Assembly: GCA_000004985.1 (NCBI GenBank)
Contig: GG738849.1
Strand: one strand, 5' to 3'
Source: Naegleria gruberi
Taxonomy: Eukaryota
Length of the DNA stretch: 64,000 nt
In this document: piece by piece, positions 3,001-41,439 of the stretch
Position numbering within the stretch: the first letter of the stretch is position 1
Layout of the letters: each line of letters opens with the position of its first letter
The notes under the pieces: model-generated
The model's database searches: none
What the model was told of the DNA's origin: nothing
Seen by the model: the letters and a program-made list of their open reading frames with translations, nothing else
Position numbers and translations under genes: made by a program

Positions 3001-4371
3001 ACCTGGAGTGGCTGATGTATTATAGTTGAGTAACTGTTGTACATAGGTAGTGACAGCACTAGAAAGTTTTGTAATAATATGTCCATCAATATTCAATTCA
3101 CCATTCTCAGATGATGAAGGTAGAGATTTATGAATATGAATCAATAATTCATAATCATAAAATATACTTTTCAACACTTCTAAAGCCAATACCTTGTTGC
3201 ATTGATTGGAAGATTTTTCAATAACATCTCGCAAGTGATCACAAATGACAAGAGTAAAAGTTTCAAAATGAAGAACCAAACCAAATGAATTGATTACAGA
3301 GCTTAAAAGCTTGTAAACTCGAAGCATTAAAGAAAAATTTGTAGAACTTCCATTAGAAATATTACTAATATTTGTCAATAAAAATGGTGTCATTCTTTGA
3401 CTGATGATATTCTTGAATAGATCAAACTGTAAGACAAAGTATTAATTAAATAATAAATAATTAATTGTACTTACTGTTGTAAAATATTTTCCATAATGTG
3501 ACAGTACTGAATCAACCAATTCAAGAATAAAATTAATATCTATATTTGAAATTCCAAGCCATTCCCCTGTTTCACCTTGAATAGTAGCACAAAGATCATT
3601 AAAATACAAAAATGCATTCTTGAATTGATTAGATTCCTCATCAATGGATCTTTCCAATTCTTCATTAGTCTCTGGATTAATTTTAGGTTTTAAAAATTCA
3701 AAAATTGATATTGTAGCTTGACGAAGAGTGGCTTTAGCAGTCATGTCAACATTTAAACTTTTAGATCCTTCCAGTGAATAGCATAATTTTAACAATTTTG
3801 AGAGTGTAATTTGATTAAGTTCATAACCCTCTCGTGCAGTGAAAATTGCCAAGACTAACTGAAGAATTTTAAGTTGCACATTTTCCTCTGTTGTGTGTTG
3901 TCCTAATCGACTGACTGTTTCTACAATAATATTCAATCCAGCCTGATGGTGATTGTTCGGAATTTGTGAAAAGCAATAAACCTACCTCGGGTACAGCACC
4001 ATATAGTAAAAGTTGATGAAGTGAAGATAGAGCAGTCACTATTAATTTTGTTGTTTTGCTTTCGCAAGCTATAAGAAATGGTTTAACAATATCCTCATTA
4101 TTTCCTTTAATCACTAAATAATAATAACAATAAATTCCGAAGATATTTTCCATCATCAAAATATTCACTTTAATCCACAAAATAAAACAGACCACATACA
4201 CTGAATAACTTGATCAGATGAAATACCTTGCTCTTCCATCTTTTCTTGTATCGATCTTAGTTGTCTGACACCACGATCAGCAGCATCTTTGATTGCCGGA
4301 AACTTCTTCTGTTGTGCTTCCACAGATAAAGATCTCAACTCACTCTGTAGTACCTTGAGAAGAGAACTCAT
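1..4371 (-). CDS. mon2: MON2 homolog (Golgi/endosome ARF-GEF-like scaffold), 5' portion; 3' end lies beyond the window start. Exon model (minus strand): 4371-4200, 4113-3986, 3942-3475, 3426-1
   Basis: The N-terminus MSSLLKVLQSELRSLSVEAQQKKFPAIKDAADRGV aligns with the MON2 N-terminus (human [27 protein letters not shown]). Downstream exons continue MON2-like with PFL..CESKTTK and QFKNAFLYFNDLCATIQGE. Three GT..AG introns of 86, 43 and 48 nt restore the frame between the ORF-track fragments 4165-4371, 3869-4201 and 3442-3936. The long open minus-strand frame from 3426 to 1 is missing from the ORF track only because it has no stop inside the window. Confidence 0.75.
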
Positions 4372-4579
4372 TTTTTGATTAAAAAAAAGAGCTCGAAATA
4401 TTTAAATTGATGATATTATTAATACATTACTCTGCTACCTGGTGATGAAAAATATTATGTAAATTTATGTAAATTGGTATTGATAATAATTTATTTGTGA
4501 TTTATGTGATTTAAATTGGATGATTTAAAAAATTGGCGTTACGTAGCTTGTTGGATTTATTTTAAATTGGTTTTTTGTA

Positions 4580-4601
4580 TGTGATCGAAAATGGCGGGAA
4601 T
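4580..4601. promoter_or_regulatory. Composite ATCGA + E2F-like site (TGATCGAAAATGGCGGGAAT) in the divergent MON2/CEP120-like promoter
   Basis: GGCGGGAA matches the E2F consensus TTTSSCGC in reverse. It sits in a 217-bp AT-rich intergenic region. The ATG inside atggcggga is followed by a stop after 12 codons and is not a gene start. Confidence 0.45.
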
Positions 4602-4625
4602 CAAACTACAAAAAAATGCAAAAAC

Positions 4626-7600
4626 ATGAGAAGACAACCACCTTCGTCATCGCCCAATAGTAGTAAACCACAACAACAATCAACATCTGCAAATGTGCAA
4701 CAACAATCAAATAATATAGTTCCTAATGTAGCCGTCAGTGAAACTAGTAGACAACATCCATTTTTCTTGCAAGGAAAAGATGAGCCCATCCTTTCCGAAT
4801 CACTGCCTCCAAAAGTGAGAGGCCAATGCTTGGGAGAGATATTCCTATGCTTGCATTGCATCAAGTGGATTACATAATAATAATAATAATTTTGCAATTC
4901 ATCCAATTTGGTGGGGAAGTGATGACAGATCTGTGTCACTTATTCCATCCAGCAATGAATCAAACAGCAAGGAGGATAAATCCAAAATCTCTGTAAGATA
5001 TCCTGTGAAAACAACAGAGGATATATTTAGAATATACCTGTCGAGTATGTAGTATTCATGCAATTTCATTAATTTACACAATATTAGATTCAAAGATTTT
5101 ATCATTGGTGATTGTGGATTGTTCAAGCCAAAATATTATTGCTGAAGCAGCAGTACCAGTTATTCAAATTTCATCATCAAATGCTATTCAAAAAGAGTAA
5201 GTATCTCAATATCATTTTCTGACCCTCAATAGATGGTTCAACGCTAAAAAAGGAAATGAAATTATTGCAAGTATTCAAGTGACAATAGCATTGGATTATT
5301 TTCTTCAAGTGACATCTTCTTCCCCTCAAAAACCTGCAAAAATTCAGAAAGAAATAGAAAGTGACTCAACAAGAGAAACAGAAAAGAAGCAAGAAAAGAA
5401 AGAACAGAAACCACAAGTACTGAAACACTACGATACAGATCCAGCAGAGGATGAAAAAACTGAAAAAGCTCCAAAAAAAACCGTATCAAAGACAGTAACA
5501 ATACGGGAGCCTTCAAGCAATAGCTTTGAACCAAAAAAGGTAACTGATCCAATTGACGATCTAATTCAGAATGCAAATATGCTAGAAAATGAAGTGAAAA
5601 AGTATTTATCAGAAAGCAATGTACCATTTTTCGATATACACTCTTTTAATAACAGAGAATCTACGGATGAAGTTCCCTTCTTCTTGAGGGATCAGGAGGA
5701 AGATGATAAGTAAGTATTCTTAATTCATCTGAGCATTTTAATTCTTCAAAGTTTCTCTGCTTCCATATCAACGATTTCTCCACGAGCTAGTTTTGATGAA
5801 ACCCATCTCTCTGAGGAAGAGCCTGAGGAAGAAGAAACCCTTGCTCCTCCAAAAATTCCAATTCAACCTCCCCAACCTGTAATATACCACTTTTTCCAAT
5901 CACCTCCTCCTCAACCTCAATATCCAACCAAAAATAATTCACCTACCATTGCAGAGAGAAAGGTAAAATCACCTAAGGAAGAAAAATATACCCCTGCTGA
6001 GCCTAAACCAATAGCAAGTCAGGAAAATCCAGTCTTCAGACACCTCCACACTCACATTCATGTTGATGAAAAACCACCAGTTAAAACCAGAGTAAGTATA
6101 GATTTATTCGATTAACTGTATTAATAAGAATAGTTCAGTATAATGTTTCACATAATTTCTGCCAAGCTAACCAAACGAATAGAAGAAAAGGATAACTGTA
6201 GAATCAAGGTGGATTTTAAACTCCCTTTTGGAAAAGATAGAGGAAAGAGTTCCCAAAACATCATAGTTACCTTCGATGAAGATGTTCGAGTCAACACGTA
6301 TGAGATATTTTCCTTCTCCAACCAAAATGTATTTCTCCCAAAGTTTAGAGATTGTTGTATGGTTATTGAAATATTTGACAATTTCAACAATTTTCTTGGA
6401 CTCAATCTTCTCAATCTTAATATTTTCTATGAGGCATTTTCTTTTGAAAAAAATTCTCAGTACATGTTTCCAAATAAGGAGGAACCAGTGATTGGACATT
6501 ATGGAGCATTTTCATGTAGCAATCCTGTTTCGGATGAAGTGATTTTGGAAATGAATTGCGTGCTGGCATTCGGTACAGAGTTCCAGGTCAAGGGATTCCT
6601 CAATTATCAGAGAGCTGCAATGACGATTCAGAATTTCGTAAGGTCTTCCCTCTCAAAATCCAGAGATAAACATCCTGAAGAAAGAGACATGATAGAAGAT
6701 AACAAACGCTTTAAACCAAGACCAAATGATGAAATCGAACAACCACGAGAAGAATACGAAGAAGAGGAACAGTATCACGAAGAAGATCAATACCCTATTA
6801 CCGAAAGCCAAGATATTGTTCATCCTATCTCTAAACCAAGTTCTCGAAATCACCAAGGTCAACAACAACCTGTTAATATACCAAAATGTATACCTCTTCC
6901 TGTGTTGTCATGTTTGACGGTGAGAATCAATAGAGCAACTGGATTGAAAGAGGCTGCCATTAAAGTGGGCTCATACAATTCACACCTTAGAGCAGCATCA
7001 CAAATTGGTGTGAATCCATTCATTGAGTTTGACAATATTAGTGGAGGTAAACCCATTCAAACACCAATATTAGCCAAAACATTTTGTCCAGTGTGGGACT
7101 TTGAGCATACTTTTGAGATATTTATTGATGAGTCAATGTTCCATACTTTGAATCATGATGAGATCATTTTCAAAGTTTTCCATAGAATTCCTCAATCTAG
7201 GATTGTCAGTCCCAATACCCCAACAGTAATTCAACTTGGAACAGTTGCGATACCTTTAAAGTATCTATTGAAATGTAAGAATGGTATTTCAGGTTGGTTT
7301 GATGTTTATGCACAAGATGAATCCATTGTTGGTACTGTAGATATTAGTATGACCTTTGATGAGAATACTGTTAACAACCTGTTTTTGAAAGAGCCTAATT
7401 CCAAAGTGGTTCAATCAAACAAACCTTCCCATTCCATTTGCAGGTTTACTATTGTCATTGAAGAAGTGAATATACCAACAGAGGTTACAGAGAGTCTAGT
7501 GCCATTTTACATGTCAGAACAAGAGCAACCAATACCTTGCTTTTTCTTTTTATCTTACAGATTGTTGGGAGAAGATTCTGTCATTGATAGCAGGCTGTAT

Positions 7601-24074: not shown

Positions 24075-27000
24075 ATGGCTGACGATTTATTGGATGGAAT
24101 TGATGATCTTTTTGATGACGATGATATTTCAAACCTTTTATCCTCAACAGATAATACTACACCAAGTCAAAATATACAACAACCCACACAAACATCACAA
24201 CAAATTCCCCTACCAAGACCTTCATCCTCTGTTTTAAATCATCAACCAATCAATGTTCCTACAGTAATCACATCAAACATGAGGTCATCATCCACTACGA
24301 TCCCAATGCCTCAACAACAACAACCCTTTAATAATGCTTTTAATAATAGGAGTAGTCAACCATTTATTAATTTCCACGGAATGAATCCATCTCATAACGT
24401 TATCAATCCTAACCAAATGCATACCATGAACAAACCAACAATGACTCAACAGGAATATCTGAATTTGATGAGAAATCCAAATCAGAACTACATACCTTCA
24501 AATCCTTCTTCATCCAATAACAATAATAATTTTATGAGGATGAATTCACTCCCCCTCAACCTTCCAAACATTAATAGCAACAATAGTAATACTGCAACAC
24601 ACAATCCTTACCTCATGCAAGTGGCTAATCTCAACAAACAACAACAACTTGTCAAAAGTTTTACAACTCAACAACCACAAGGTAAATACTCCTCCTCAGC
24701 AACTGCACAAGTAGCTCCACCAAAACCATCTATTCCTCTCCATTCTGTCATTAACCAAATGGGAGGAAATCCAAAACTCCAATTTTCAACAATGGTCAAT
24801 CCACCACCTTCTTCTGCTTCTGGTAATGCAAAATTGGCTCATTCATTCTTAAATTCTATTCAACAACTCAATACACCAACAGGTGGCGTAATACCTCCTT
24901 CTTTTTTCACATCAGCCCCATCAGCCCCAATTCAGATCACTCTACCAACAAGCACAAAGGGATTTCTTGAAATTTCAGCTGGTACAAAGTTAGGAAAGAA
25001 ATGGCCTAAACTTTTGAGTGAAATTCCAAAAGTTGAGATCACTGTTGTAAATAATAGAATATGGCAATCTTTGACCTCATCTCCAAACTCTAATGCTGAA
25101 AATAATTCCATCAGATGTTATGTTCCAGATTTTGGTTCAGAGTTTGATGATTTTGATGATGATGATCTTGATGATGAAGAGGACGATATGCTATCAGACG
25201 ACGAAGAGTTCAATAATATGGATGAGGAATCCTTTGACTTGAACAAATTTAATTCTAAAACCAAAAAGAGTCAAGGTATGAAGAGAACAAGGTCTGGAGA
25301 AAGACCAAGACAAAAAAGTAATGCGTGTGTCTATTTATTTTCTCCGAATAGAGAAGCATTTGGATATATTAGTTCTCAAGAGTATAATAATTGCTTTGTT
25401 CCTCTTTCTAAACACAAAGTAATCATGATAACTGTATCTCCACTTCCAAGTACTGATAATTCAGGAAGATTTTTTGTTTCTCTCAAAGTTTATCTTGTCA
25501 AAAAAGCCCTTGTGACTGATAAGAATATTCTCGAGTCTAATAATGATTCTAATGATTCCAATAACAATATTTTGACAACAGCTGTTGATGGAATGGCTGA
25601 TGAGCAAATTAGAATCTATAATATTCGTAAAAACTTTTTGAAAAAGTTATTCGAAATTTTAGATAGAAATAATTGTTCAACAGGTGCTTCTTCCTCTTCA
25701 GATTTAACTGAATATGATTCTAGCAAAGTGAGAAAGACGAGTGAATCTGATATTAATGCTTCTAGAATTAAACAAGAGGAAGAGGATGATCTTGATGCCC
25801 TCGATGACACTGATTTGGATGAGTACATTATTCAAAAAGCACCAGCTTCCAGCTCTACAAGCAGTTCTAACTTGGATATCCAAGGTACTGATAAGAGTCT
25901 AGAGAAGCAACTCGAAGAGTTGTACGATGAGATTGAAAAAACAATTGTTGATGATGAAAATGCAGAGAATGATTTTTCTGATGAGGAGGAATCGAGTCAT
26001 CACGAAATTGAAATTCCTGACGATACACTCTTAACGGCTGATCTTAGAAGTTATCAAAAGACTGCTGTGAAATGGATGCTTAAACGTGAAAGAATTGGAG
26101 AAGATAAAGTCAAAACCACACCCAAGTTACACTCCCTTTATCAAGAAAGAAAATTCCCAGACGGAACAGCATTTTACTTTAATCCTCTTAATGGTATTAT
26201 AACATTGACATTTGTTCCTGCTCCACCTGAACCAAAGGGTGGTATTCTTGCTGAGTAAGTTTTTATTTTCGAATACTGGTTACTAATTTAATAATTTTTT
26301 AGTGAAATGGGTCTTGGTAAGACTGTAGAAGTAATTGGCTTGATTGCCTCCAATAGAATGAAAGGAAAAAAGAATACACAAAAAGTTGGTGACAAGTATC
26401 AATCTCCTGCTACTTTGGTTGTAACTCCATTGACTATTGTTGACCAGTGGAAGCAAGAAATTGAAAAGCACACAAACAATCAACTCAGTGTATACGTTTA
26501 TCAAGGTAGTAGGCGTATCAGAGATGCACCAACACTTCTCAAATATGATGTAATTATTACCACATACAACACACTTAGTTTCGAGTTTAGTCAAACTTAT
26601 ACACCAGCAAAAGAAAGGTCCAACGCAAAAAAGAAACAAACGAAGGATACATCAATGCAGCAACCTAGTCCAATATACAAGATGAAATTTTTCAGAGTTG
26701 TTCTCGATGAAGCTCACAATATTAAAAATAGAAAGTCTCTTCAGGCCAGGGCTACAGCAGCTGTTGATGCAGAAAGAAGATGGGCAGTCACCGGTACACC
26801 AATTCAAAATCATATTGATGACTTATTCTCACTATTCCACTTCTTGAAAGTTAATCCACATGGAGATTGGAGATGGTGGTCAAGGTTTATTGGCAAACCA
26901 TTCGAAAAGAAGGATAAGAAGGCTATTGACGCTCTTCAATCTGTTATCAAGAAGTTGGTCATTCGTAGAACAAAGAATAAGAAGATTAATGGTAAAAGAA

Positions 27001-28151
27001 TTGTCATGTTGCCACCAAAGAGAATCGAGACAGTCAATATACAATTTACTGAGGCAGAGAGTAATTTTTACAAATCTCTCTACGAGTACAGCAAGGGTAA
27101 ATTTAACGAGTTTGTTAGAAGTGGAACTGTTCTTAAAAATTATGCAAACATTTTGGAAATGCTTTTGCACTTGAGACAGGTTTGCAACCATCCAGCTCTC
27201 ATCATTACAAGTTTCCAGAAGAAATCTGAAAAATCAACCATGAATGGCTTCTTGGAAAGTTTTGAACAAAAGAATGCCTTTGAAGTATATGATTCTATTT
27301 TACCAATGTTACCTCAAGTTTTAAAACTTAATAAGGAAAAGAACAAACCAAAACAAAATTTGGAAGATGGCATGATTTCCTCTCAACTCAAAGCTATTAA
27401 TGTTACTAAATATATGAGGACTAATTGGAGATCGAGTAGTAAGATTGGAGCTCTTATAGAAAAATTGAGAGTTTTAGAGTTGGGAACTAAATCAGTTGTG
27501 TTCTCACAGTGGACATCCATGTTGGACTTGGTAGAAGTAGCTCTCGAAAAATCTAACATTAAATTCGTCAGACTTGATGGTAAAATGCAAAGAAAAGACA
27601 GAGATGATGCAGTACAAAAATTCAAATTTGATCCTCATATTCAAGTTTGTCTTATTTCCCTCAAGGTTGGTGGTACAGGGTTGAACTTGGTTTGGGCTAC
27701 ACATGTATTTTTATTAGATCCATGGTGGAATCCTGCTATTGAAGAGCAAGCCATTGATAGAGTTCACCGTATTGGTCAAGATAAGCCTGTTACTGTTTTC
27801 AGATTCGTTGTAAAGGATTCAGTTGAAGAACGTATTTTGAGTTTACAAAAGAGTAAGACTAAAATTGCCAATGAAGCGCTCAATCTTGGTGGAAGTGATG
27901 ACGAGGAAGAAGAAAATTATACAACCTATACAACATCATTCTTGGGTGGCTCATTTGGTGGTGGTGCTTTGAAGAGCAAGTCATATGACTCTGATGAAGA
28001 ATATGAGGATGACGATGAAGACGAATTCAATGAAGTAACTGTAGATGACTTGGAGGATGAAGAATCAGGATCTGGTGGTGCCATGTTTGGCCATACCAAG
28101 AAGGATGCTCAAAAAATACGTATCAAGGATTTGTCTACAATCTTTGTTTAA
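24075..28151 (+). CDS. SNF2-family DNA-dependent ATPase of the Rad5/Rad16/lodestar lineage, with no RING finger visible between the ATPase lobes. Exons 24075-26254 and 26303-28151
   Basis: A 48-nt GTAAGT..TAG intron splits the codon GA|T and reconstitutes canonical motif I, ILA-DEMGLGKT. Further motifs are DEAHNIKNRKS (motif II), VTGTPIQNHIDDLFSLFHFLKV and the helicase-C block LISLKVGGTGLNLVWATHVFLLDPWWNPAIEEQAIDRVHRIGQ. The N-terminal 700 aa are N/Q/S-rich and acidic. Confidence 0.8.
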
Positions 28152-28242: not shown

Positions 28243-29091
28243 ATGAGTCAACAGCCTTTTTTCCAGAAGGTTACACAGGCAAGAAAGAGCAAGTCTTCTG
28301 TTCCGAATACATCTACAAGCTTTTTTTCCACTTTAAATGCAACACTCCAAAACGATACAAGCGATAGGGATTTTTTGAATTATTTTAGTCTGAGTGAAGA
28401 GGATCACCAGAGAAGTGATGAAGCCCTTGGTCTTCGTACACAACATGATCCAGAAGCTAGTACACCATTAGCACCAGAAGATGATGAGGATGAACCTGTG
28501 GGGGATGAGGAAAACTCTCCAATATCACAACCAACACCTAGGACAAGACCTAGGCATCCAAACTATGGAATGAAAACAGTGAGGCAAACTTCTGCCTCTT
28601 CATCAAATAATCCAAATGAAAAACGAAAAAGAAAGCAAAGGTGGCTTCAAGAAATTCGAAAATATCAAAAATCAACTAGGAATCTCATTCCAAGGGCATC
28701 TTTAATTAGATTAATCAAACAAGTTACTGCCGAATTATCTGAGAAAATTCCATACATTAGACAGCTTGCTGGTGAAGGTGCAATTCGATGGAGAAAGGAT
28801 GCTCTTGCTGCTCTCCATTCAGCAGCAGAAGATTTTTTACATGAATTTTTAACACTTTCTAACTATGCCACATTGCATGCCAAAAGAGTTACACTCATGG
28901 GTAGGGATTTAAAGCTTGTACAAAATATTAATAGGGAACACAATAGACATAGTAACAATGCTGGAGGAAAGAAACAAGCGTCATTTCAAGAAAGACCAGC
29001 AAGGAAGAGAAAGGATCCCAAGCGTAAGGACCTTTCAGAGTCAGTCCCAGAAAATAGTGATGATTCTATGAGAGATGAAGAGTCCTCATAA
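28243..29091 (+). CDS. Centromeric histone H3 variant (CenH3/CENP-A-like): long divergent N-terminal tail, H3 histone fold with extended loop 1, plus a roughly 45-aa basic/acidic C-terminal extension
   Basis: Histone-fold region RWLQEIRKYQKSTRNLIPRASLIRLIKQV...LHAKRVTLMGRDLKLVQNI compared with H3 [28 protein letters not shown]...IHAKRVTIMPKDIQLARRI. Loop 1 (SEKIPYIRQLAGEGAIRWRKDA) is longer than in canonical H3, and the N-terminus is non-H3. Both are CenH3 hallmarks. Confidence 0.75.
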   Translation: MSQQPFFQKVTQARKSKSSVPNTSTSFFSTLNATLQNDTSDRDFLNYFSLSEEDHQRSDEALGLRTQHDPEASTPLAPEDDEDEPVGDEENSPISQPTPRTRPRHPNYGMKTVRQTSASSSNNPNEKRKRKQRWLQEIRKYQKSTRNLIPRASLIRLIKQVTAELSEKIPYIRQLAGEGAIRWRKDALAALHSAAEDFLHEFLTLSNYATLHAKRVTLMGRDLKLVQNINREHNRHSNNAGGKKQASFQERPARKRKDPKRKDLSESVPENSDDSMRDEESS

Positions 29092-29200: not shown

Positions 29201-31147
29201 GTGTTTGTTCGAAATGCTAAATTAAAAAAAATGTCTGAACACTGCTCACTTTCGGAACAACTTGCGACCATACTAGTGCTACGAGAGGAAAATTTACTCT
29301 CTGAACCAAAACGAACGGACACTGTGGAAGTAACAATACCCGATTATTTTTCAAAACATTATAATAGAGTTTTAAGAGATCCTCTGGGGGAGTATCGTTC
29401 TCTGATTGAAGTACAATCGGTTGAAGAGGCTAATAGTTTTATAACATTTTCTAAACAAATCTTTAATCAAGTCTCTGTGGAGAATAATATAGTAGAACCA
29501 TCAAATTATAAATTAATATCAAAATCAGAAATCACAAGACAGTCACCACTTCTCCAAGCGTTAATGGTGAAAAGACAACACGAATATATTGCACCAAAAA
29601 TTGTAAATGTACCTTCATCTGTTGTTCGATCAACAACTCCGAGCTTTGAAAATGTAAATAGTAATAATTCAGTTGTACAGCAACAACAAATAGGAAGGAA
29701 GCCTATTCGATCATCTCACAACAACAAGTCTTCTGATGTTATGGTCATTGATGATGACGAGGAAAAACAACCAAAAAGTTCCTTCGTGACAGCTAAACAA
29801 TTAGTGAAGAAAAACAAGGGTAGTAATAGTAAGGATATTATGTCTGATGATGAAAATGAAGAGGAAACAATCAAGAAAAAGACATTGAGCGACATTAAAA
29901 ATCCAACCTCTAACTATCATCCAGTCACTTCATTGACAAGAAATTGTGGAGAAAATACAGGTGGAACGAAAAGGAAAAAGTTTGTGCCACCTTTGAAAGA
30001 TAATGGCAATAATAATAGTAATAATAATAATAATTCGAGTTCAAATTCAGGAGAAAAGCCTGCAAAAAAGAAAAAGAAAGGTGCTGATGATGAAAAGGCT
30101 CCTGATTTATCTAAATTATTTGAGGATGGTGAAATACCAGAGGAGTTGTCACATCTAGATCCTAAATTGATTGAGACAATTTCTAATGAAATTTTGGAAT
30201 CTAAAGTATCTGTAACTTGGGATGATATTGCTGGTTTGGCCTATGCAAAGAAATCAGTGCAGGAGGCTGTTATTTGGCCCCTAATGAGACCAGATTTATT
30301 TACAGGATTAAGAAAGCCTCCAAAGGGTAAGTTATAATTTCTGTTTAAAATATTCAAATTTATTTAAAATATTAATGAAATAGGACTTTTATTATTTGGA
30401 CCACCTGGTACTGGTAAGACACTGATTGGTAAGGCTATTGCTCATGAGAGTGGATCAACCTTCTTTTCCATTTCTGCATCCAGTTTAACCAGTAAATGGG
30501 TTGGTGAAGGTGAAAAATTGGTGAAAACACTATTTTCTCTGGCTAGATATTTCCAACCTTCTGTTGTTTTTATTGATGAAATTGACAGTTTACTTTCTCA
30601 AAGAAGTGATGGAGATGCTGACAATGGATCTAGAAGACTCAAAACAGAATTTTTAGTTCAATTGGATGGTGCTTCTACAAATGATGACCAAGATAGAATT
30701 TTGATTGTGGGTGCAACCAATAGACCAGAAGAAATTGACGAAGCTGTCAGAAGAAGAATGGGCAAGAGATTGTACATTCCTCTTCCATCTAAGGAGGGTA
30801 GAAAGGAAATGTTTTTGAGACTTCTCGCCAAGAATCCTAATACACTCTCTGATGAAGAAATGGAAAAGTTAGTAGAACTCACTGATGGTTATTCGGGTTC
30901 TGATATCAAAAATCTTTGTGCTGAAGCTTCTATGTTCTCAGTTAGAGATCTTGGATCATTTATTAAGCATGCGTCAGCTGATCAATTGAGGCCAATTGAG
31001 TTTAAGGATTGTAGATCAGCCCTTAAATCAATTCGTCCTTCTGTAGCACAAAGTGATCTAGATAGATATATTGAATGGAATAGAACATTTGGTTCTTTTG
31101 ATTTTGATGAGAAGGAACAAGAAGAGTCATCAGCAAAAAGTGATTAA
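29201..31147 (+). CDS. AAA ATPase of the meiotic clade (fidgetin-like 1 type). Exons 29201-30326 and 30384-31147
   Basis: A 57-nt GTAAGT..ATAG intron splits the codon G|GA and restores ...[27 protein letters not shown] (Walker A). Downstream motifs are [11 protein letters not shown] (Walker B), [21 protein letters not shown] (second region of homology with arginine finger) and the C-terminal WNRTFGSF. A non-ATPase N-terminal region precedes the ATPase; the start may be ATG 29201 or 29231. Confidence 0.8.
30008..30034 (+). repeat. (AAT)n imperfect microsatellite encoding an Asn/Ser run in the FIGL1-like gene
   Basis: aataataatagtaataataataataat. Confidence 0.85.
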
Positions 31148-32099: not shown

Positions 32100-33218
32100 T
32101 CAATTTTTTAAATCCATCTCAAAATTGATGCAAACATCGTAATATTTTGAATTTTTCAGCATGATTCTATGATATTTACAATTTGGTGATCCATAAAGCA
32201 ATTCACACACAAAATCCAATTCTTCCAATGTTGAGGGAAGATACAATGCTTTTCCTCTTCTTCTACATCTTCCAGATCGCATTCTACTAATTGCCTTATC
32301 ACAAATGACATCAAAATGCACAACCAATTCGCACCACTGCATGTCAATTCCATACCAATCATCATGAGTGCCAATCAAATACAACGATTCATAATACAGT
32401 TGATGTAATTTCCCACACTGAGGAACAACCAATAGGGAGGGAAATATTGAATCTTTTAGAATGACATGAAACTGCTCTGCTCTGGAGTAGGTATTGCAGA
32501 ATAGTACCGTAGAGACAGTTCCATTTTGAATGGATTGTAGCAAGCTGAGCTTTTGATCCATTTTTGGACAATAGACGAAATTCTCATAAATATTATCTCC
32601 CAACTGCTTCTCTCTTTGATCGAATGTAATAATAAGTGAATCCTTCAAATAATCATCATACATGTAACATTCTTTGGGTAACATTCTCAAACCAGTTCCC
32701 AGAATTTCACATCCTTTTGGGAGTTGATTGAAAATACTCTTAATACACTTTCTTCTTCCACATCCAATCTCTAACATGATATCCATTTCATCAATTGCAA
32801 GAATTTCCAAACTAGTAAAATTAATTCTATTCTTCTTAATTGCTAATTCTGGAGTGGTAATCAAAATTCTTGGATTTTCTCTCCAATCACTAGAAATTTT
32901 CGCCTCTTGAATAAAATCAGCAAGAGCAAGCATAGCACTTCTTACTTGATAGGCCAAAAACTCGTTCGGAACTAGAACTAAACCTTGCAATTGATCATCC
33001 TTCTTTGAAAAATCAACATGTTTCAATACTTTAATTATCAATCCAATAGTTTTCCCTGATCCTGCAATCCATTGAACTAGTGTGCAAGATTTCGTTGATT
33101 CAAAAGATTTCAAGATGGCTATTTGGGAGGGAAGCATCATTTCAAATCCATAGCAATAAATTCCTTTTAAAAGATTCTCCGAAACATTTAAATCCTCAAA
33201 AGATGTAGAATCAGACAT
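32100..33218 (-). CDS. Divergent eIF4A-like DEAD-box helicase paralogue with degenerate catalytic motifs (DEMD in place of DEAD), 372 aa, intronless
   Basis: Collinear with the eIF4A N-terminus: FEDLNVSENLLKGIYCYGFEMMLPSQIAILKSFESTKSCTLVQWIAGSGKTIGLI compared with [53 protein letters not shown]. Motif II is LAIDEMDIML, and motif VI is degenerate (SRMRSGRCRRRGKA). Confidence 0.65.
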   Translation of the reverse strand: MSDSTSFEDLNVSENLLKGIYCYGFEMMLPSQIAILKSFESTKSCTLVQWIAGSGKTIGLIIKVLKHVDFSKKDDQLQGLVLVPNEFLAYQVRSAMLALADFIQEAKISSDWRENPRILITTPELAIKKNRINFTSLEILAIDEMDIMLEIGCGRRKCIKSIFNQLPKGCEILGTGLRMLPKECYMYDDYLKDSLIITFDQREKQLGDNIYENFVYCPKMDQKLSLLQSIQNGTVSTVLFCNTYSRAEQFHVILKDSIFPSLLVVPQCGKLHQLYYESLYLIGTHDDWYGIDMQWCELVVHFDVICDKAISRMRSGRCRRRGKALYLPSTLEELDFVCELLYGSPNCKYHRIMLKNSKYYDVCINFEMDLKN

Positions 33219-33410: not shown

Positions 33411-36400
33411 ATGAGCCTGAACGGAAATGTTACACCTCCTACATCATTATTGAACAACAATAGAAAAAACAAAGTTATTGGTGACGATGATGATGATGAG
33501 GACATGGTGTCCTCCAATAATAATAATAATAACAATAATAACAATAATAACAGTGCTAACGTTTCGCAAGGAGGTTCTGCATCAGCTAATAGTAGAAGGA
33601 AAGAAGAAAAGAAAGTGGTGAAGAGTTATGATGAATCGGAGAGTGCTAGCGATATGGACACAGATTCTGAGTCTGATGTATCGGATACTAGTAATAGTAG
33701 TTCTTCGGGAGAAGAAGAAGAAGGTATGTTAAATAATTATTTAGAAAATTAATAGTGTCATTTTGATATATTAAAAAAACAGAGGATGGATATTTGTGGA
33801 ATATTACTGAAGAAGATGGAAAAGATGTTGCTGTCCGAGGTTATGAGCATAGGTTTGTTTTTAAAAGGGCTATATAATATTTAATATTCTCGGAATTGTT
33901 TTTAATATCATCATCGTTAGAGGCGAAAACAAAAATCCAACTGCACCAGTTATGATGCAAATGAAAAAGTCCAAAAAAATTAATTTTCCAATTACTGTGA
34001 AAGATAACAAGTGTTCTATCGGATTATCTGGGTATTGTATGATAAAGGCGTCACACTGTATGGAGAGCGGATCGTATTATTATGAAGTCAAAATTGAGGA
34101 ATCCGTATCATGTGACACAACCAAACTTCCTGATTATGCAAAACAAAGTCATTATAGATGTGGATGGAGTATGGAGCAAGGATTCGATAAAGCTTGTTGT
34201 GGATACGATAAATACTCATTTAGTTATGGAAGTAGTGACGGAAATTGTTTTCATAAAGGAAAAGGATCTAAATACGGAGAAAAGTTTGGAGTTGGAGACA
34301 TAATTGGATGTTATATTGAAATACCAGATACCTCAACACCCAATATAATTTATGTTGATGGAAGTATGAGTTTAAAAACTGGAGAAGTTTTCAGAACAAA
34401 GATTGCTACATTGGCAGAGAAAATTGTACCAAATAGCAAAATAATCTTCTTCAAAAATGGAAAATTTCAAGGTGTCGCTTTTACTGATATCCCATATGGA
34501 GCATACTTTCCAGCTATTTCACTATATATGAATGCAAGCGTAACAATGAAATTTGAAAAATATCAACTACAATATAACCCTTATGATATCTGCCCAGAAT
34601 ATATTGCTAAAGATTGGAAACCTGTTGGTGATTTGAGACACCGTAATAAGAACACTCAAAAAACTCCAAGAAAGTCAAATTCACAAAACGAATTCAAAAC
34701 TCCACCTAGTATTTCAAAAGGCAACTTGAAAGAGATTGGAAAGGGTGCTTCTAAACAATTTCATCAATCACCATCCCAAAACAGACATTCAAAAATTGCC
34801 TCAGCCACAATTACTGAAAATAAGAAACCAAAAGAAAAGAAGGAAAAATCTGAGAAATCTCATCATCATCATTCCCATTCAGGACATGGTGATAAGAAAA
34901 CTAAAAAAAAGAAGGAACCAAGGCCATCCAATTCAAGTACCACAGATTTGAAAAAACCAGTTACTGATAAGCAGCCTTCTCCTTCTATTGTTATTGAAAA
35001 ACCTCCAATTGAATTACCACCTCCTCCACCTACTGTTTCAGTTGTCACTTCTACTGAAGTTCCAAAAAGTGTTACTGAGAAGAAAGAAAAGAAAAAGAAA
35101 CCAAAGCCTTTAAGGATTATTACAGACGAAACAGACCTACCAAACATTAAGGAAACAAAACCAAAAATTCAAGATTCTCCAAGATTACCACTAACCCCAT
35201 CTAGTTTGAACCAAAGCTCTGACTCTCCTCTTGTCAGAAGTTCCTCTTCCATGTCAAGGGTGCCAAGTTACTCTGATGTTATGCCTCCTTCTCCTGTTCC
35301 TCCACAACCAAAATCAGATCAGCAAAAATCAACAACACCAACTTTGGATAAGAATACTCGTTCTCCTTCCTCTGCAGGCTCATCGTCTTCAATTAGGAAA
35401 TCTAATAGTGGAACCAGTCTAGAAAAGAGTACATCCTCATCGACACCAACTACACCTGCCACTATCTCAACACCAATCTCAGCAACAAGCACTGCCTCTT
35501 CCTCTTCTGCAAGTAACGCAACTACACCTGCAATAATTCCTCCTGTAAATGATGTCATGCCTGTAAATAAGCCATATATAACAAACATGTCTGACAAGCC
35601 TATCGTTCAATCCTCATTTCCTTCGATTGAACAAATTACACCTCAAGCCAAGGAAAGGAAATCTAAACCAAAGTCTGAAGGTTCATCAATCATGGCTAGA
35701 TCAAAAAATTTCACACCAAAGAAAGTATTAGCCAAGAAGGAAGATTCGGTACCTGTAAAAACTGCTCCTAAGAGAAAGGCTCCAAGTAAAGATGAGGAAC
35801 CTGTCATTCATCACCACACAGTTAAGCTTTTGGATCCGAAAGATCTTCAACAGGCAAAGAAAGCTAAACCTACTCCATCTGCTGAGACAACACCTGTGGC
35901 TACTAATGCACCAAGTGAACCAAAGCCATCATCACCAACTAAGAAACGAAAGACAAGCAAGGCTGAAGCAAAAGAACCAAAGGAAACTCCATCATCTACT
36001 AAAACCAAGGACGAAAACAAAAAGATTGATTCTATTGAACAGGTTACTAGTAATGTAAAAGAAGCTATTCCTGAAAGAATTATGGAGACTATTATTCCTA
36101 AACAACAAATTCAACAAACAGTACATAATCCTGTTCAACCAACAGCTGTGAATCAAACCATACAAGATGCCTCTAAAAACATTTTACAGACCTCTCAACA
36201 TTACTCATCACAACTCAATCAGATTAGTCAACCAAATGTGCAAACAGTTCAGCAACCACAACACGTTAGCACGCAACAATCTTCCACTCCTCAATATGAA
36301 AGATCGAATGCAGAACCAGCATATTCATTTTCTAGTTTGCTGTTAGGATCACCAAACACTTCAAAGAGTATACAAGATCAAATAGGTCAAATATCGTCCT

Positions 36401-37809
36401 CTTCCTCAAACAATTTGAATCACCAATCTTCACAGATACCTGTTAATAATAGTAATTTTTACAAAAATACCTCCCAAGTTTCTACTACCGAAAGAAAACA
36501 AGATTGGCCTGTACATCAGTTACAGACACCAAACAGTGTAACAGCAGCAAGCATGGCAAACACATCATCATCAGTTAGAAATATGCAAACAAGCTTGCCG
36601 AATAATGTTCAAGATATGTCACCAAGTTATCAATCTAGAATGTCTCTTGAAAATCTTATGGCTCAAAACAAACATGAAAATTTGAGATTACTGGAACAAA
36701 TTAATACTCTGCCAAAGGATATTCCAAAGCAACCAAATCCAATGCAAGTCTCTACTCCAACAATGACAAGCCATACTCCTTCTTTCCGTGAATTACTCGA
36801 AACACCAAGTAGCTTTAATTCATCCTCCAGTAGTTCACAAATGTCTAATTCCAATAATTTCTTGACTTCTCAATCAAGAAACATACCTTCAACCGTACCA
36901 CAACAGCAACAGAAGGTTGGTAATCCAAATTTTGTAAACTATCAAATTGGTAAGGATCATACCCAAGGATCAAATCTAGGCAATACCAACAACTATTCCA
37001 ACTATCTACAACAACAACAACAACAACAGCAGCAAGCAGTTAATGAAGTGAAGCAATTGAGTCAACAGGTTTCGAATCAAAATATTTCAAATAATTATGG
37101 TCAATATTCCCAACAACAAAGAGGTAACTTCCAAACCAATACTGCCTATTCATCCAATATGAACACTGCCTCACATAATTTCGCACCTCACCACCAAAAT
37201 GTATTGGTCAACAATACTTCTGCCAACAACATGAATGTAAACCAAAATAACATGACCAATATTGCAAGTATGTCAAATATGAATCAAATGACATCAAATT
37301 TGATGAATAGTCAGAATAGCTCCAAATATAATTCTCTTCAAGGTGCTTCTCTCAACTATCCAACCATGAATCAACAATCCCAGCAACAACAAATTACAAG
37401 TTCATATTCAGGAAATATGGGAGGTCAACCAAAGCAAAATATGATGAGCACTTCTCAACAAGCTTTTAATCAACACCAACATTCCCAACAAACATTGTCT
37501 CATAATCAGCAACAACATTCCCAACAACAATACTCTTCGAATAATATTCCAAGAGGTTTTGCACCACAACAAATTAATCCACAGCAACTGGGAAATAGTC
37601 AAATGACCTCTAATCACCAACAACAATCAATGAATGTTGGTAATTCCAATAACAATATGCAACAATTCCTTCCTGGTATGCATCAGCAATTGCCCAATAA
37701 TTCCCACAACTTCCAAAACTACCAACAAAACAATTCACAACAACAACAAAACACTGGGCAACAATCATCTTTCAAATACTCTTACCTCAATAATAATATC
37801 AATAAATAA
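33411..37809 (+). CDS. ASH2-like SPRY-domain protein (Set1/COMPASS subunit homologue) with a C-terminal low-complexity Q/N/S/P tail of about 1000 aa. Exons 33411-33723, 33783-33852 and 33921-37809
   Basis: SPRY core GYCMIKASHCMESGSYYYEVKI...RCGWSMEQGFDKACCGYDKYSFSY...[38 protein letters not shown] compared with human ASH2L [20 protein letters not shown]...RLGWSQPLG...[29 protein letters not shown]. Two introns (59 and 68 nt, phases 1 and 2) link an acidic and poly-N first exon and a 70-nt micro-exon to the SPRY exon. I see no PHD or winged-helix region. Confidence 0.75.
33517..33552 (+). repeat. (AAT/AAC)n microsatellite encoding poly-Asn in ASH2-like exon 1
   Basis: aataataataataataacaataataacaataataac. 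Confidence 0.9.
37008..37039 (+). repeat. (CAA)n(CAG)n microsatellite encoding poly-Gln in the ASH2-like C-terminal tail
   Basis: acaacaacaacaacaacaacagcagcaagcag. Confidence 0.9.
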
Positions 37810-39027: not shown

Positions 39028-41439
39028 TTATTTCCTACATGATCGAAGTATTTTCTTAAAAACTCTAAACCAGCTCTTCTTTCCATAAACTAACCTTAGT
39101 CCAACATAGCTCAAAATCTTACAAACAATCCAAAAAGAAGTGAGAATTGCCAAATAGACCCACAACATGTAATGTGGATCTGAATATCCATAATTCTTTT
39201 CCAGGAAATAGGTTCCGTTTGTGTAGTAATTTGAAGGGAGGGTAGTATTTAAAGGTGTTTCTAGTTGAATATCAAACTCATTGATAGCCATAGCTTTGAA
39301 ACCATAAAACAGATAATTGAGATATTTAAACCAAGCTAACCATTCAGTATTATGAATACCATAAACCCCACTTGTTAATATAAACATAATATTAATTACT
39401 GGTGTAATTAAATTCAATAAAGGTGGTATAGGAACAAGTGAAACAAGCATTTGAGCAAAACTCACACAAGTCCAATGATAAGTAGCAAAAATAAGGCCGA
39501 AAATTAATACTCGATCATATTCCAATGTCAATCCAGTCATAAAATAAACGATTCCACCAAAAAGCAGCGAAAATATCGACGTTTCTATTAAATCCTCCAT
39601 TGTCTTGGAAATAAAAAACGCACTAGTTCTATAGATTGAACTATTTCTCTCCTGGGTCAACATTGGAATTTGATTAATTAAATTTTTCAAACTTGCAGAA
39701 AACGTTAAAGAGATATTTAAATTGAGAAAGGTAAAAATTTTACCCTTCAATGGCATATTGTTAGGATCTATTTGAAAGTATAATAATCCAATAAATACAG
39801 ATACTGCTATTTTTTCCACGAAAGGTATTAAAAATTCCACTTTCCAATTTCTCAATCTACTCAAATAATTTCTCATTATAAGTGTAAAAACAGAGTAAAA
39901 GAAGTTGGCATAATAAGGCTCGTAGTGAAAAGTTGTTGGATCATTTTCAAGATATCGATTTTCCTCCTTATTTTTCATGGGAATGAAGAAATCGTCCAAT
40001 TGTTTGATATACTCTGTGGCAAATAACTCACTCTGATCTAACGGCTCTTGTGCATCTTCGACTAGTATTGTTTCAAATGTCTCTGTCTGAAGGAGAGAAA
40101 TAACTTGGAACAAAAACTCTACTTCATTATGATTTGATTCATCAGCACTGACACCGATTTTTGAAAAATAGGTAATTAACTTGTTCGGTGGACCAAAGTA
40201 TAATTGATTTCCCTTATTAAGTATTGATATATAATCAAATAACTCTAGTTCTTTTAAAGATGGCTTGTGAGATGTGACCACCACTCCCACACCCATAAGA
40301 GCAATTGATTTCATAATTCTAATAAAATGGGCAGCCTCTCCAATTTCCATGCCATCTGTTGGATATTCAAGAAGTAATACTCTGTGTTTGAGAACATTCT
40401 GCACGGCAATGTGTAATCTCTTCTTCTCAGCTGTTCCAAGGGCTGAATAAAACACATTCTCCTTGTTTTTCAACTCGTACTTTTTGAGGAGGTATTCCAA
40501 ACGTTCCTCTCTACAATTTGAGGCTGCACTCTTAATGTTTGTCAATTTCAATTTGACTGTGAAATTCAAAATTTCCCTCACAGTCAAAACTGGGTGGGAT
40601 GTTGCAAAATGCTTTGGGACATGAGCAACCAGAGACTTGTATTGAGTTGATGTTAGTCTAATACTCGGTTTGTCATGACACGAACAAACAACCTTTCCAT
40701 TAATTAATATTTGGCCTCCAAAATCCTTAAAATCACCTCTCTGGGATAGTATATTCAATAGAGTTGACTTGCCACTATTAGAAGAACCAATGAGAGCTGT
40801 TATCTTTCCTGGTGTCGCAAATCCACACACATTCTTAAGATGCAATGATTCATTTGTAGCTCCTAAAGGATATTGCAATCCCTTCCACTCCAAGAAACAT
40901 CTCTCATCACCCTCAACAAGTGGGTCATCATGAAATTCAACCTTTGCCAGGGAGCTTGATTTCTTAAGAAAACCTACACCTGGATGTTTGATTGGCTTAA
41001 TTGTTCCTTTCAGAGTCAATTTCCTCTGTGGAACAACATTTAATTCAAACTCTACCGCACTATTTCTCCTACTACTTTTAAAAGACAATTCATTTCTCAT
41101 GGCTGAGGCAACAGCTTGCAATGTTGATGGAGAGGCAAAATGGTTATCCTCCAGTTTATCAACAACATCGGACGACACTTGAGAAATATCGACTACTACT
41201 TGTCCTATATCATCATTGGGTGATGAAGATGTTACAACTATTGAGGGTGGAAGTGAAGATGCTTGAGATTCTTGAGTGGATACCACTGCTTCCGACATTT
41301 TTTCGCACTTGATTAGTGTGGGTTCACAGAATGGTGTGTTTCTTTCCCGCTCTACAGTTGTTACAAGAACTGTACTTGGAATGCGTCTACTGACCTCTGC
41401 CACGTCTGGAGATTGGGTTCTTCTTAAAATGTTTAGCAA
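39028..41439 (-). CDS. ABCG (White-type) half-transporter with an N-terminal NBD and a six-helix TMD. The NBD catalytic motifs are degenerate
   Basis: Walker A GSSNSGKSTLLNIL is intact and the H-loop TSHKPS is present. The signature reads SALGTAEKKRLHIA instead of LSGGERKRLSIA. Walker B and catalytic base read LLLEYPTDG instead of LLLDEPTSG. The Q-loop glutamine is absent (AHVPKH). The C-terminal hydrophobic segments and the ABC2-type architecture are typical of ABCG. Confidence 0.8.
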   Translation of the reverse strand: MLNILRRTQSPDVAEVSRRIPSTVLVTTVERERNTPFCEPTLIKCEKMSEAVVSTQESQASSLPPSIVVTSSSPNDDIGQVVVDISQVSSDVVDKLEDNHFASPSTLQAVASAMRNELSFKSSRRNSAVEFELNVVPQRKLTLKGTIKPIKHPGVGFLKKSSSLAKVEFHDDPLVEGDERCFLEWKGLQYPLGATNESLHLKNVCGFATPGKITALIGSSNSGKSTLLNILSQRGDFKDFGGQILINGKVVCSCHDKPSIRLTSTQYKSLVAHVPKHFATSHPVLTVREILNFTVKLKLTNIKSAASNCREERLEYLLKKYELKNKENVFYSALGTAEKKRLHIAVQNVLKHRVLLLEYPTDGMEIGEAAHFIRIMKSIALMGVGVVVTSHKPSLKELELFDYISILNKGNQLYFGPPNKLITYFSKIGVSADESNHNEVEFLFQVISLLQTETFETILVEDAQEPLDQSELFATEYIKQLDDFFIPMKNKEENRYLENDPTTFHYEPYYANFFYSVFTLIMRNYLSRLRNWKVEFLIPFVEKIAVSVFIGLLYFQIDPNNMPLKGKIFTFLNLNISLTFSASLKNLINQIPMLTQERNSSIYRTSAFFISKTMEDLIETSIFSLLFGGIVYFMTGLTLEYDRVLIFGLIFATYHWTCVSFAQMLVSLVPIPPLLNLITPVINIMFILTSGVYGIHNTEWLAWFKYLNYLFYGFKAMAINEFDIQLETPLNTTLPSNYYTNGTYFLEKNYGYSDPHYMLWVYLAILTSFWIVCKILSYVGLRLVYGKKSWFRVFKKILRSCRK

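Follow-up and report, generated by a model that had tools for sequence, protein, structure and literature searches.

The 64,000-nt stretch of DNA analyzed here, called the window below, is part of Naegleria gruberi contig GG738849.1, and its gene at positions 32100-33218 raises the question of what an eIF4A-type DEAD-box protein may still do once much of its motif set has degenerated. The window was N. gruberi nuclear DNA, with about 33-34% GC throughout and long, intron-poor open reading frames (ORFs). An uninterrupted, single-exon ORF of 372 amino acids plus a stop codon was found on the minus strand at exactly these positions, and its product was 100% identical to N. gruberi XP_002681786 (EFC49042, NAEGRDRAFT_46148, UniProt D2V2E2). 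The ORF list, this identity, a Pfam DEAD match, and matches to solved structures identified it as the complete coding sequence (CDS) of NAEGRDRAFT_46148, an eIF4A-like paralog. Judged from its sequence, the protein belongs to an uncharacterized, lineage-restricted, eIF4A-derived family with an unusual signature, in which the ATP site was kept and the RNA site was lost. Our preferred reading, to which we assign a probability of about 0.55, is that the protein would act as an ATP-binding switch or adaptor derived from eIF4A, rather than as a canonical RNA clamp or helicase.

The ORF is, by homology, an eIF4A-type DEAD-box derivative, with similarity far beyond chance. PF00270 (DEAD) was its sole Pfam domain (E 3.8e-14; 53.2 bits against a cut-off of 26), and the Pfam scan found no PF00271 (Helicase_C) in the window protein even at E <= 1; PF00271 was present in the orthologs from N. 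lovaniensis and Willaertia magna. A phmmer search against all PDB sequences ranked eIF4A3 best (5.8e-18), with yeast eIF4A (1e-17) and human eIF4A1 (2.2e-17) close behind and DDX19 (2e-13) and DDX6 (1e-6) at lower ranks. In these PDB alignments, the homology to eIF4A and eIF4A3 spanned residues 5-327, with residues 5-324 covered by the HMMER alignment to eIF4A3. The N-terminus was collinear with eIF4A, as the initial annotation had described, with F7, LLKGIYCYGFE, Q32, and AGSGKT at residues 52-57 all in place.

DEAD-box proteins normally conserve a complete set of twelve motifs. Which of these persisted was read from a MAFFT alignment of the family with human eIF4A1, eIF4A3, and several canonical homologs, which agreed with the HMMER alignments; the human eIF4A3 sequence used agreed with the PDB alignment. 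Motifs Q, I, II, and VI serve ATP, motifs Ia, Ib/Ic, IV, IVa, and V serve RNA, and motifs III and Va serve coupling (Putnam & Jankowsky 2013, as summarized in PMC9539457).

The ATP motifs were largely intact (all positions are on the minus strand). The Q-motif region (residues 7-32; 33123-33200) read F7 ... GFEMMLPSQ32 for the canonical F ... GFEKPSAIQ; the adenine-recognizing glutamine, Q32, was kept in register and was invariant in the family, and F7 was present in the window protein, not being among the family-invariant residues. The P-loop, or motif I (residues 50-57; 33048-33071), read WIAGSGKT for the canonical AQSGTGKT, with G53, G55, K56, and T57 family-invariant and the same as in eIF4A. 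Motif II (residues 143-146; 32781-32792) was DEMD, encoded by gatgaaatggat, which ends at 32781, and it fell column for column on the canonical DEAD in three independent alignments, in agreement with its initial assignment. D143, E144, and M145 were invariant in the family, and the fourth position was D or N (DEMD/DEMN). In motif VI (residues 313-322; 32253-32282), MRSGRCRRRG stood for the canonical HRIGRxGRFG, with the arginines and glycines kept and the histidine replaced by methionine. Residues R314, G316, R317, R320, and G322 were family-invariant and matched the canonical R, G, R, R, and G, and the histidine was lost in all five members covering the region, with M, I, L, or F instead. Motif VI of the paralog NAEGRDRAFT_62154, IRTGRSGRFGRVG, was canonical except for the histidine. 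The initial annotation, which stated that motif VI lacks the HRxGRxGR arginines, was wrong on this point, as the motif retains R314, R317, and R320 and has lost the histidine alone.

Conservation across the family followed the same pattern. Five full-length members shared 53 invariant columns, of which 35 were identical to eIF4A1/3 and concentrated in the ATP site; these 35 include Q32, G53, G55, K56, T57, D143, E144, G290-I291-D292, R314, G316, R317, R320, and G322. The remaining 18 were family-specific (M145, G176, C184, Y216, C217, H301, Y326-L327-P328, T330, and E333-L334, among others). Across three species, no variation was seen in the residues predicted to bind or hydrolyze ATP, i.e., the Q-motif glutamine, GxGKT, D-E in motif II, GID, and the arginines of motif VI.

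Degradation was greatest, a point overlooked in the initial annotation, in the RNA-contact motifs (the motif Ia arginine, the GG loop, the G-R of TPGR, and QxxR). Motif Ia (residues 84-89; 32952-32969) was PNEFLA for the canonical PTRELA, and the RNA-contact arginine was missing in 6/6 family sequences, with E, D, or I instead. The Ia-Ib segment (residues 101-120; 32859-32918) was shortened and lacked the eIF4A beta-strand and GG loop in HMMER, MAFFT, and AlphaFold2 (AF2) results alike; the deletion in the GG region covered about 8-14 residues, with 8+3+3 residues missing relative to eIF4A3 in HMMER, leaving RecA1 about 14 residues shorter, and GG absent in MAFFT. Motif Ib (residues 121-125; 32844-32858) was TTPEL for the canonical GTPGR, with T122 invariant and the G-R lost, and QxxR was unrecognizable and not alignable in the window protein. 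The coupling motif SAT had been described initially as unrecognizable, and this held: its position (motif III; residues 176-178; 32685-32693) was occupied by G176-L177-R178, of which G176 was family-invariant and the other two varied. In every member, the motif Ia arginine, GG, the G-R of TPGR, SAT, and QxxR were absent.

Other elements of the RNA side were kept. Motif IV (residues 238-243; 32490-32507) was VLFCNT, compared with VIFCNT in eIF4A3, with F240 and C241 invariant. Motif V (residues 281-293; 32340-32378) read LIGTHDDWYGIDM for the canonical LITTDxxARGIDV; T284 was conserved and G290-I291-D292 were invariant, and the arginine was replaced by tyrosine. Willaertia kept this arginine (FRGID).

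A family signature, YLPSTLEELDF (residues 326-336; 32211-32243), lay in the last beta-alpha unit of RecA2, and its residues Y326, L327, P328, T330, E333, and L334 were invariant in the Naegleria and Willaertia members and different from eIF4A. A C-terminal "extension" was considered and rejected, as the YLPSTLEELDF...CKYxRIM tail is the normal last RecA2 strand-helix-strand of eIF4A (VAINFVxxxDxxxLxxIExxY...EMP). Cysteine made up 4% of the protein, with C184, C217, and C241 invariant, and a putative cysteine-rich metal site was considered from this content and these invariant positions.

The predicted structure was consistent with an eIF4A-like fold. An AF2 run on four family sequences alone was unusable, with a predicted local distance difference test score (pLDDT) of 49, and a 79-sequence alignment was used instead, yielding a pLDDT of 86.3 and a predicted template modeling score of 0.86. 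The model followed the strand-helix order of two RecA lobes, supporting, at the level of prediction, the two lobes anticipated initially, with a tail disordered after residue 355. A vestigial 2-residue strand (108-109) stood at the place of the eIF4A GG strand, and a strand (323-326) and a helix (331-342) were present near the C-terminus. Foldseek against PDB placed 2j0s_A, eIF4A3 in the exon junction complex (EJC), at the top (E 2.3e-22; template modeling score, TM, 0.78), followed by closed eIF4A1, DbpA, Dbp5/DDX19, and UAP56, with TM of 0.75-0.80 for closed eIF4A3, eIF4A1, DDX19, and DbpA.

Within the DEAD-box proteins, descent from the eIF4A/eIF4A3 group is likely from the sequence comparisons. 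The family profile scored highest on eIF4A-I (164 bits), followed by eIF4A-III (158), yeast eIF4A (151), Dbp5/DDX19 (139), DDX6/Dhh1 (137), and Sub2/UAP56 (118), and in single-sequence BLASTP, eIF4A3 was the best reference for every family member. A preference for eIF4A3 over eIF4A1 is not robust, as the profile search reversed the single-sequence order and the distances in the neighbor-joining tree were saturated. In that tree of 148 sequences, the family was monophyletic on a saturated long branch (distances of about 2.0-2.2 to everything), with the aberrant P0140 as its sister; the tree was unable to place the family because of this saturation and of long-branch attraction to P0140, and the grouping of P0140 with the Naegleria family probably reflects that attraction. 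P0140, a JGI (Joint Genome Institute) metagenome protein of 397 aa, was itself an unrelated degenerate eIF4A-like protein with DEAN for DEAD, STT for SAT, and the motif VI HRSGNAGPFGRNG.

A species' own eIF4A copy is typically >50% identical to animal or yeast eIF4A. The window family was 24-28% (about 25%) identical to human eIF4A1 and eIF4A3, which placed the window protein below the >50% identity of the eIF4A/eIF4A3 orthologous group. A survey of eukaryotic mRNA-metabolism genes gave XP_002676412 as N. gruberi eIF4A and did not include the window family among the eIF4A/eIF4AIII homologs (PMC5862402 supplement). As a separate canonical eIF4A exists, the window gene is a paralog and not an ortholog. 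The literature search found no mention of the family's locus tags, so that, with the canonical eIF4A separate, the initial impression that no characterized family covers the protein was upheld. Databases automatically label the family as "ATP-dependent RNA helicase"; the family itself is uncharacterized and lineage-restricted.

The family comprised at least four N. gruberi paralogs and single genes in N. lovaniensis and W. magna. A word-index search recovered the further N. gruberi proteins 62154, 71451, 73388, and 76775 at 49-56% identity; 76775 probably represents a haplotig, as it matches the N-terminal portion of 62154 exactly and its contig is 7 kb long. The N. gruberi paralogs shared 48-58% identity over all comparisons. 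Within the aligned family they shared 48-54% with each other and 31-35% with their N. lovaniensis and Willaertia counterparts, a difference that suggests an N. gruberi-specific expansion. A family-profile HMMER scan, exhaustive over 1.84 billion representative proteins, yielded only two further members, the C-terminal 430 aa of N. lovaniensis XP_044549354 (E 1e-61) and W. magna KAL9658104 (E 3e-41), and otherwise nothing closer than generic eIF4A-like proteins (E 1e-33 or weaker). The Naegleria genus includes the pathogen N. fowleri; as the library was clustered at 50%, any N. fowleri copy would sit inside the N. lovaniensis cluster, and a word-index search with the N. lovaniensis domain returned generic DEAD-box proteins only, missing its own parent, and was uninformative on N. 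fowleri. Family-pattern scans found no relatives in JGI metagenome contigs or IMG/VR viral contigs. A viral origin was considered and found no support, with no IMG/VR relatives and with the metagenomic eIF4A-like proteins P0155 and P0156 scoring no better than cellular eIF4A.

Several of the family's gene models were irregular. Two N. gruberi models were truncated, 71451 (262 aa), which stops abruptly before motif V, and 73388 (286 aa), from which 100 N-terminal residues are missing, the Q motif and P-loop among them. For 73388, a full 389-aa ORF was found on an independent, N. gruberi-like contig (ENA ERZ929261 k127_210930, positions 1268-2437), which makes truncation of the reference model probable. 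The ENA ERZ929261 sample also contained an almost identical allele of the window gene. Sample ERR1078381 (PRJEB11402), labeled "metagenome", carried DNA >99% identical to the N. gruberi reference over the locus; it showed small indels in the A/T runs between genes, and 20 nt were inserted immediately before the start codon. In N. lovaniensis, XP_044549354 (1132 aa) was annotated as a cellulase-like secreted protein fused to the eIF4A-like domain via a predicted intron. Within the extract PYSW02000020.1:541502-550957, in extract numbering, the annotated gene occupied 3001-6456; the upstream ORF closed with a hydrophobic tail and a stop codon of its own at 5088, and the helicase ORF lay at 5104-6456 in a different frame. 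The only nearby ATG (5154) was one base out of frame and was preceded by an A-run, much as the start codon is in N. gruberi. An annotation artefact, together with an assembly indel or a real frameshift, is the probable cause of the fusion.

The gene showed signs of functional constraint. Comparison of the reference with the ERZ929261 strain showed 2 substitutions in the 1119-nt CDS, of which one was synonymous and the other F39S, without any indel, against 11 events, four of them indels, in 482 nt of flanks (Fisher p = 7e-5), so that the CDS was about 13-fold less polymorphic than the flanks in these two strains. The Nei-Gojobori ratio of nonsynonymous to synonymous divergence (dN/dS) between the window gene and paralog 73388 was about 0.39, and it is probably overestimated, as dS (about 1.15) was near saturation. 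ORFs were open in three species. Intact ORFs, low CDS polymorphism, the dN/dS, and the invariant ATP-site columns do not form the pattern of a decaying pseudogene.

With the ATP pocket whole and most canonical RNA contacts and coupling elements gone, we infer an ATP-binding, two-lobe switch or adaptor without the canonical dependence on RNA, which would be neither an RNA-dependent ATPase or helicase nor an RNA clamp. In the mechanism that we propose, an eIF4A/eIF4A3-type gene would have been duplicated in the Naegleria-Willaertia (vahlkampfiid) lineage, giving a minimal protein of two RecA lobes that diverged very fast, to about 25% identity with eIF4A, and expanded to at least four paralogs in N. 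gruberi. The complete nucleotide pocket has been kept, namely the Q-motif phenylalanine and glutamine, GxGKT, the motif II Asp-Glu, the motif V Gly-Ile-Asp, and the arginine fingers of motif VI. The elements that grip RNA in DEAD-box proteins have been lost (the motif Ia arginine, the GG loop, the Gly-Arg of TPGR, and QxxR), and so has the network coupling RNA binding to hydrolysis, with SAT, the motif VI histidine, the alanine of DEAD, and, in some paralogs, its last aspartate. The conserved residues suggest that ATP may still be bound, and perhaps slowly hydrolyzed without RNA, and ATP-driven closure of the two lobes could then serve as a switch or adaptor. Contact with a partner may be made via family-specific surfaces such as the invariant YLPxTxEEL.

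Several points weigh against this proposal. Binding of ATP by the protein is predicted from conserved residues, and the methionine in place of the DEAD alanine, together with the loss of the motif VI histidine, could impair hydrolysis and even binding. The window protein also had a 3-residue deletion inside motif VI, unlike the other members; because of this deletion, MAFFT paired R320 with the fourth arginine of HRIGRxGRFGRKG, and an ungapped register placing R320 at the third motif VI arginine was equally good. Binding of RNA through new basic patches is possible (KKNR at 128-131, GRRK at 154-157, and RRRGK at 319-323). As the AF2 alignment consisted mostly of canonical eIF4A-like proteins, the model indicates fold compatibility only, and neither conformation nor ligand. 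The protein partner, probable in our reading and perhaps of the MIF4G type that binds eIF4A-like proteins, is pure conjecture. The gene was not listed in the expression tables of the published supplements searched.

An alternative is that the protein is still a genuine RNA-dependent ATPase or helicase, whose RNA motifs merely drifted, and so a highly divergent enzyme acting on a specialized RNA substrate. The full ATP pocket, motif IV, T122 of motif Ib, and T284 and GID of motif V are all conserved, the Willaertia ortholog keeps the motif V arginine and scores on Helicase_C, and the predicted fold superposes on closed, RNA-bound eIF4A3. However, drift would have to account for the joint loss, in every member, of the motif Ia arginine, the GG loop (physically deleted), the Gly-Arg of TPGR, QxxR, and SAT, and for a window protein without a Helicase_C match even at a permissive threshold. 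We know of no canonical DEAD-box helicase that lacks the motif Ia arginine, GG, the TPGR Gly-Arg, QxxR, and SAT together, and we consider this alternative unlikely. Somewhat less likely still, in our view, is the model of the initial annotation, by which the protein would be an ATPase-dead RNA clamp, similar to eIF4A3 locked on RNA in the EJC, or an inert scaffold of the Utp25 pseudo-helicase type. DEMD/DEMN, the loss of SAT and of the motif VI histidine, and fast evolution all fit such a protein, and pseudohelicases derived from DEAD-box proteins exist, including Utp25 (PMC9539457) and MUT-15 (bioRxiv 10.64898/2026.09.04.749402). A clamp, however, needs precisely the RNA-contact motifs that are missing, and with these lost and RecA1 lacking the GG strand and loop, the clamp was the least compatible of the roles suggested initially. 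An inert scaffold would not be expected to preserve Q32, GxGKT, D-E, GID, and the arginines of motif VI unchanged between genera, where overall identity is about 32%. What stands of the pseudo-helicase description is an eIF4A-derived paralog with DEMD and without SAT; its claim of catalytic death relied in part on the mistaken arginine-less motif VI and is at odds with the conserved ATP residues. A regulatory-subunit role, also suggested initially, is plausible as a hypothesis.

That the locus is merely a decaying duplicate, a pseudogene or gene-model artefact without function, appears very improbable. The very low identity to eIF4A, the two truncated paralog models (262 and 286 aa), the N. 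lovaniensis copy without an in-frame ATG, and the lack of an expression record in the published supplements searched could all be read in its favor. Decay is hard to reconcile with a 372-codon ORF that remained open in a genome of about 33% GC, with full-length ORFs in three species, with an indel-free CDS about 13-fold less polymorphic than its flanks and a dN/dS of about 0.39, and with invariant catalytic residues; paralog 73388, moreover, was full-length (389 aa) on an independent contig. The ATP-binding switch or adaptor remains the reading that we prefer. A bolder extension of it, which we regard as quite improbable, is that the family forms a new class of RNA-independent ATP switch derived from eIF4A in vahlkampfiid amoebae, acting as a decoy for or regulator of eIF4A partners (eIF4G, CWC22, NOM1, PDCD4). 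If this were true, fast evolution and expansion might reflect translation control in the transition from amoeba to flagellate, or an arms race in which the protein is a decoy for eIF4A-targeting factors.

The neighborhood of the gene was ordinary. Its flanking genes included a SNF2-family ATPase on the plus strand (26307-28151; SNF2-rel_dom E 1e-60 plus Helicase_C) and an ABCG-type transporter on the minus strand (39028-41439; ABC_tran plus ABC2_membrane), both ordinary cellular genes, and no sign of a mobile or viral island was seen around the eIF4A-like gene. Between them on the plus strand, a 282-aa ORF (28243-29091) had a core histone fold at residues 99-226 (Pfam Histone E 1.9e-21) and was extended N-terminally by about 100 residues, which makes it long for a core histone. 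The adjacent plus-strand ORFs at 29201-30337 and 30518-31147 were apparently exons of one gene, with a probable intron at about 30338-30517; the second carried the C-terminal half of an AAA domain, an AAA lid, and Vps4_C, pointing to a katanin, spastin, or Vps4-type ATPase. A 1285-aa plus-strand ORF (33952-37809) began with an N-terminal SPRY domain, followed by about 1000 low-complexity residues rich in Ser, Thr, Pro, Gln, and Asn. GC skew was strongly negative at 36-38 kb (-0.32).

At present, the family is of moderate interest to DEAD-box specialists, with narrow wider consequence. Biochemical confirmation of its pattern would make it a natural separation-of-function variant of eIF4A, useful for studying how lobe closure, nucleotide, and RNA binding are coupled. 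In that case, it might also hint that Naegleria regulates translation or RNA metabolism in a lineage-specific way.

Set beside known DEAD-box proteins, the family had the two lobes and the ATP-site motifs and lacked the literal DEAD, SAT, and the Ia, GG, TPGR, and QxxR elements. Its closest likeness is to eIF4A (eIF4A1/Tif1), the best-scoring solved relative of the family profile, with which it shares the same minimal size, two RecA lobes, and no accessory domains, together with LLRGIYxYGFE...Q, GxGKT, D-E, FxNT, GID, and RxGRxxR. It differs from eIF4A in being only about 25% identical, in having DEMD for DEAD, and in lacking the Ia arginine, the GG loop, the TPGR G-R, SAT, QxxR, and the motif VI histidine. 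The eIF4A3/Fal1 group supplied the best single-sequence PDB match, the best BLASTP reference, and the best Foldseek match, and shares FCNT in motif IV and, in a gapped HMMER alignment, a tryptophan in motif V; the same motif losses set the family apart from it. The acidic pair D401/E402 of eIF4A3 is needed for MAGOH-Y14 binding, and the corresponding region of the window protein aligns too poorly to judge.

Dbp5/DDX19 and DDX6/Dhh1 form the next-best sequence group (137-139 bits, about 25 bits below eIF4A), and share the two-lobe core; MIF4G or Gle1 protein partners govern their ATPase cycle, a mode that we propose for the window family as well; unlike the family, they keep all RNA-binding motifs and SAT. 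Utp25 (DEF) and MUT-15 are pseudohelicases that combine a DEAD-box-like fold with degenerate motifs and serve as scaffolds instead of unwinding (PMC9539457; bioRxiv 10.64898/2026.09.04.749402). In Utp25, the DEAD motif is absent, and only motif Ia and partial Q, IV, V, and VI motifs remain (PMC9539457). No Utp25 family was among the Pfam matches of the window protein, indicating no sequence relationship, and Utp25 is pan-eukaryotic, whereas the window family is confined to Naegleria and Willaertia. By the pseudohelicase definition drawn from Utp25/DEF, the fold fits, but the loss of ATP motifs does not, as these are strictly conserved in the window family. Known degenerate members such as Utp25, which lacks DEAD and most of its ATP motifs, lost the ATP site; the window family did the opposite, with its ATP pocket frozen and its RNA-binding and coupling elements gone over genus-level divergence.

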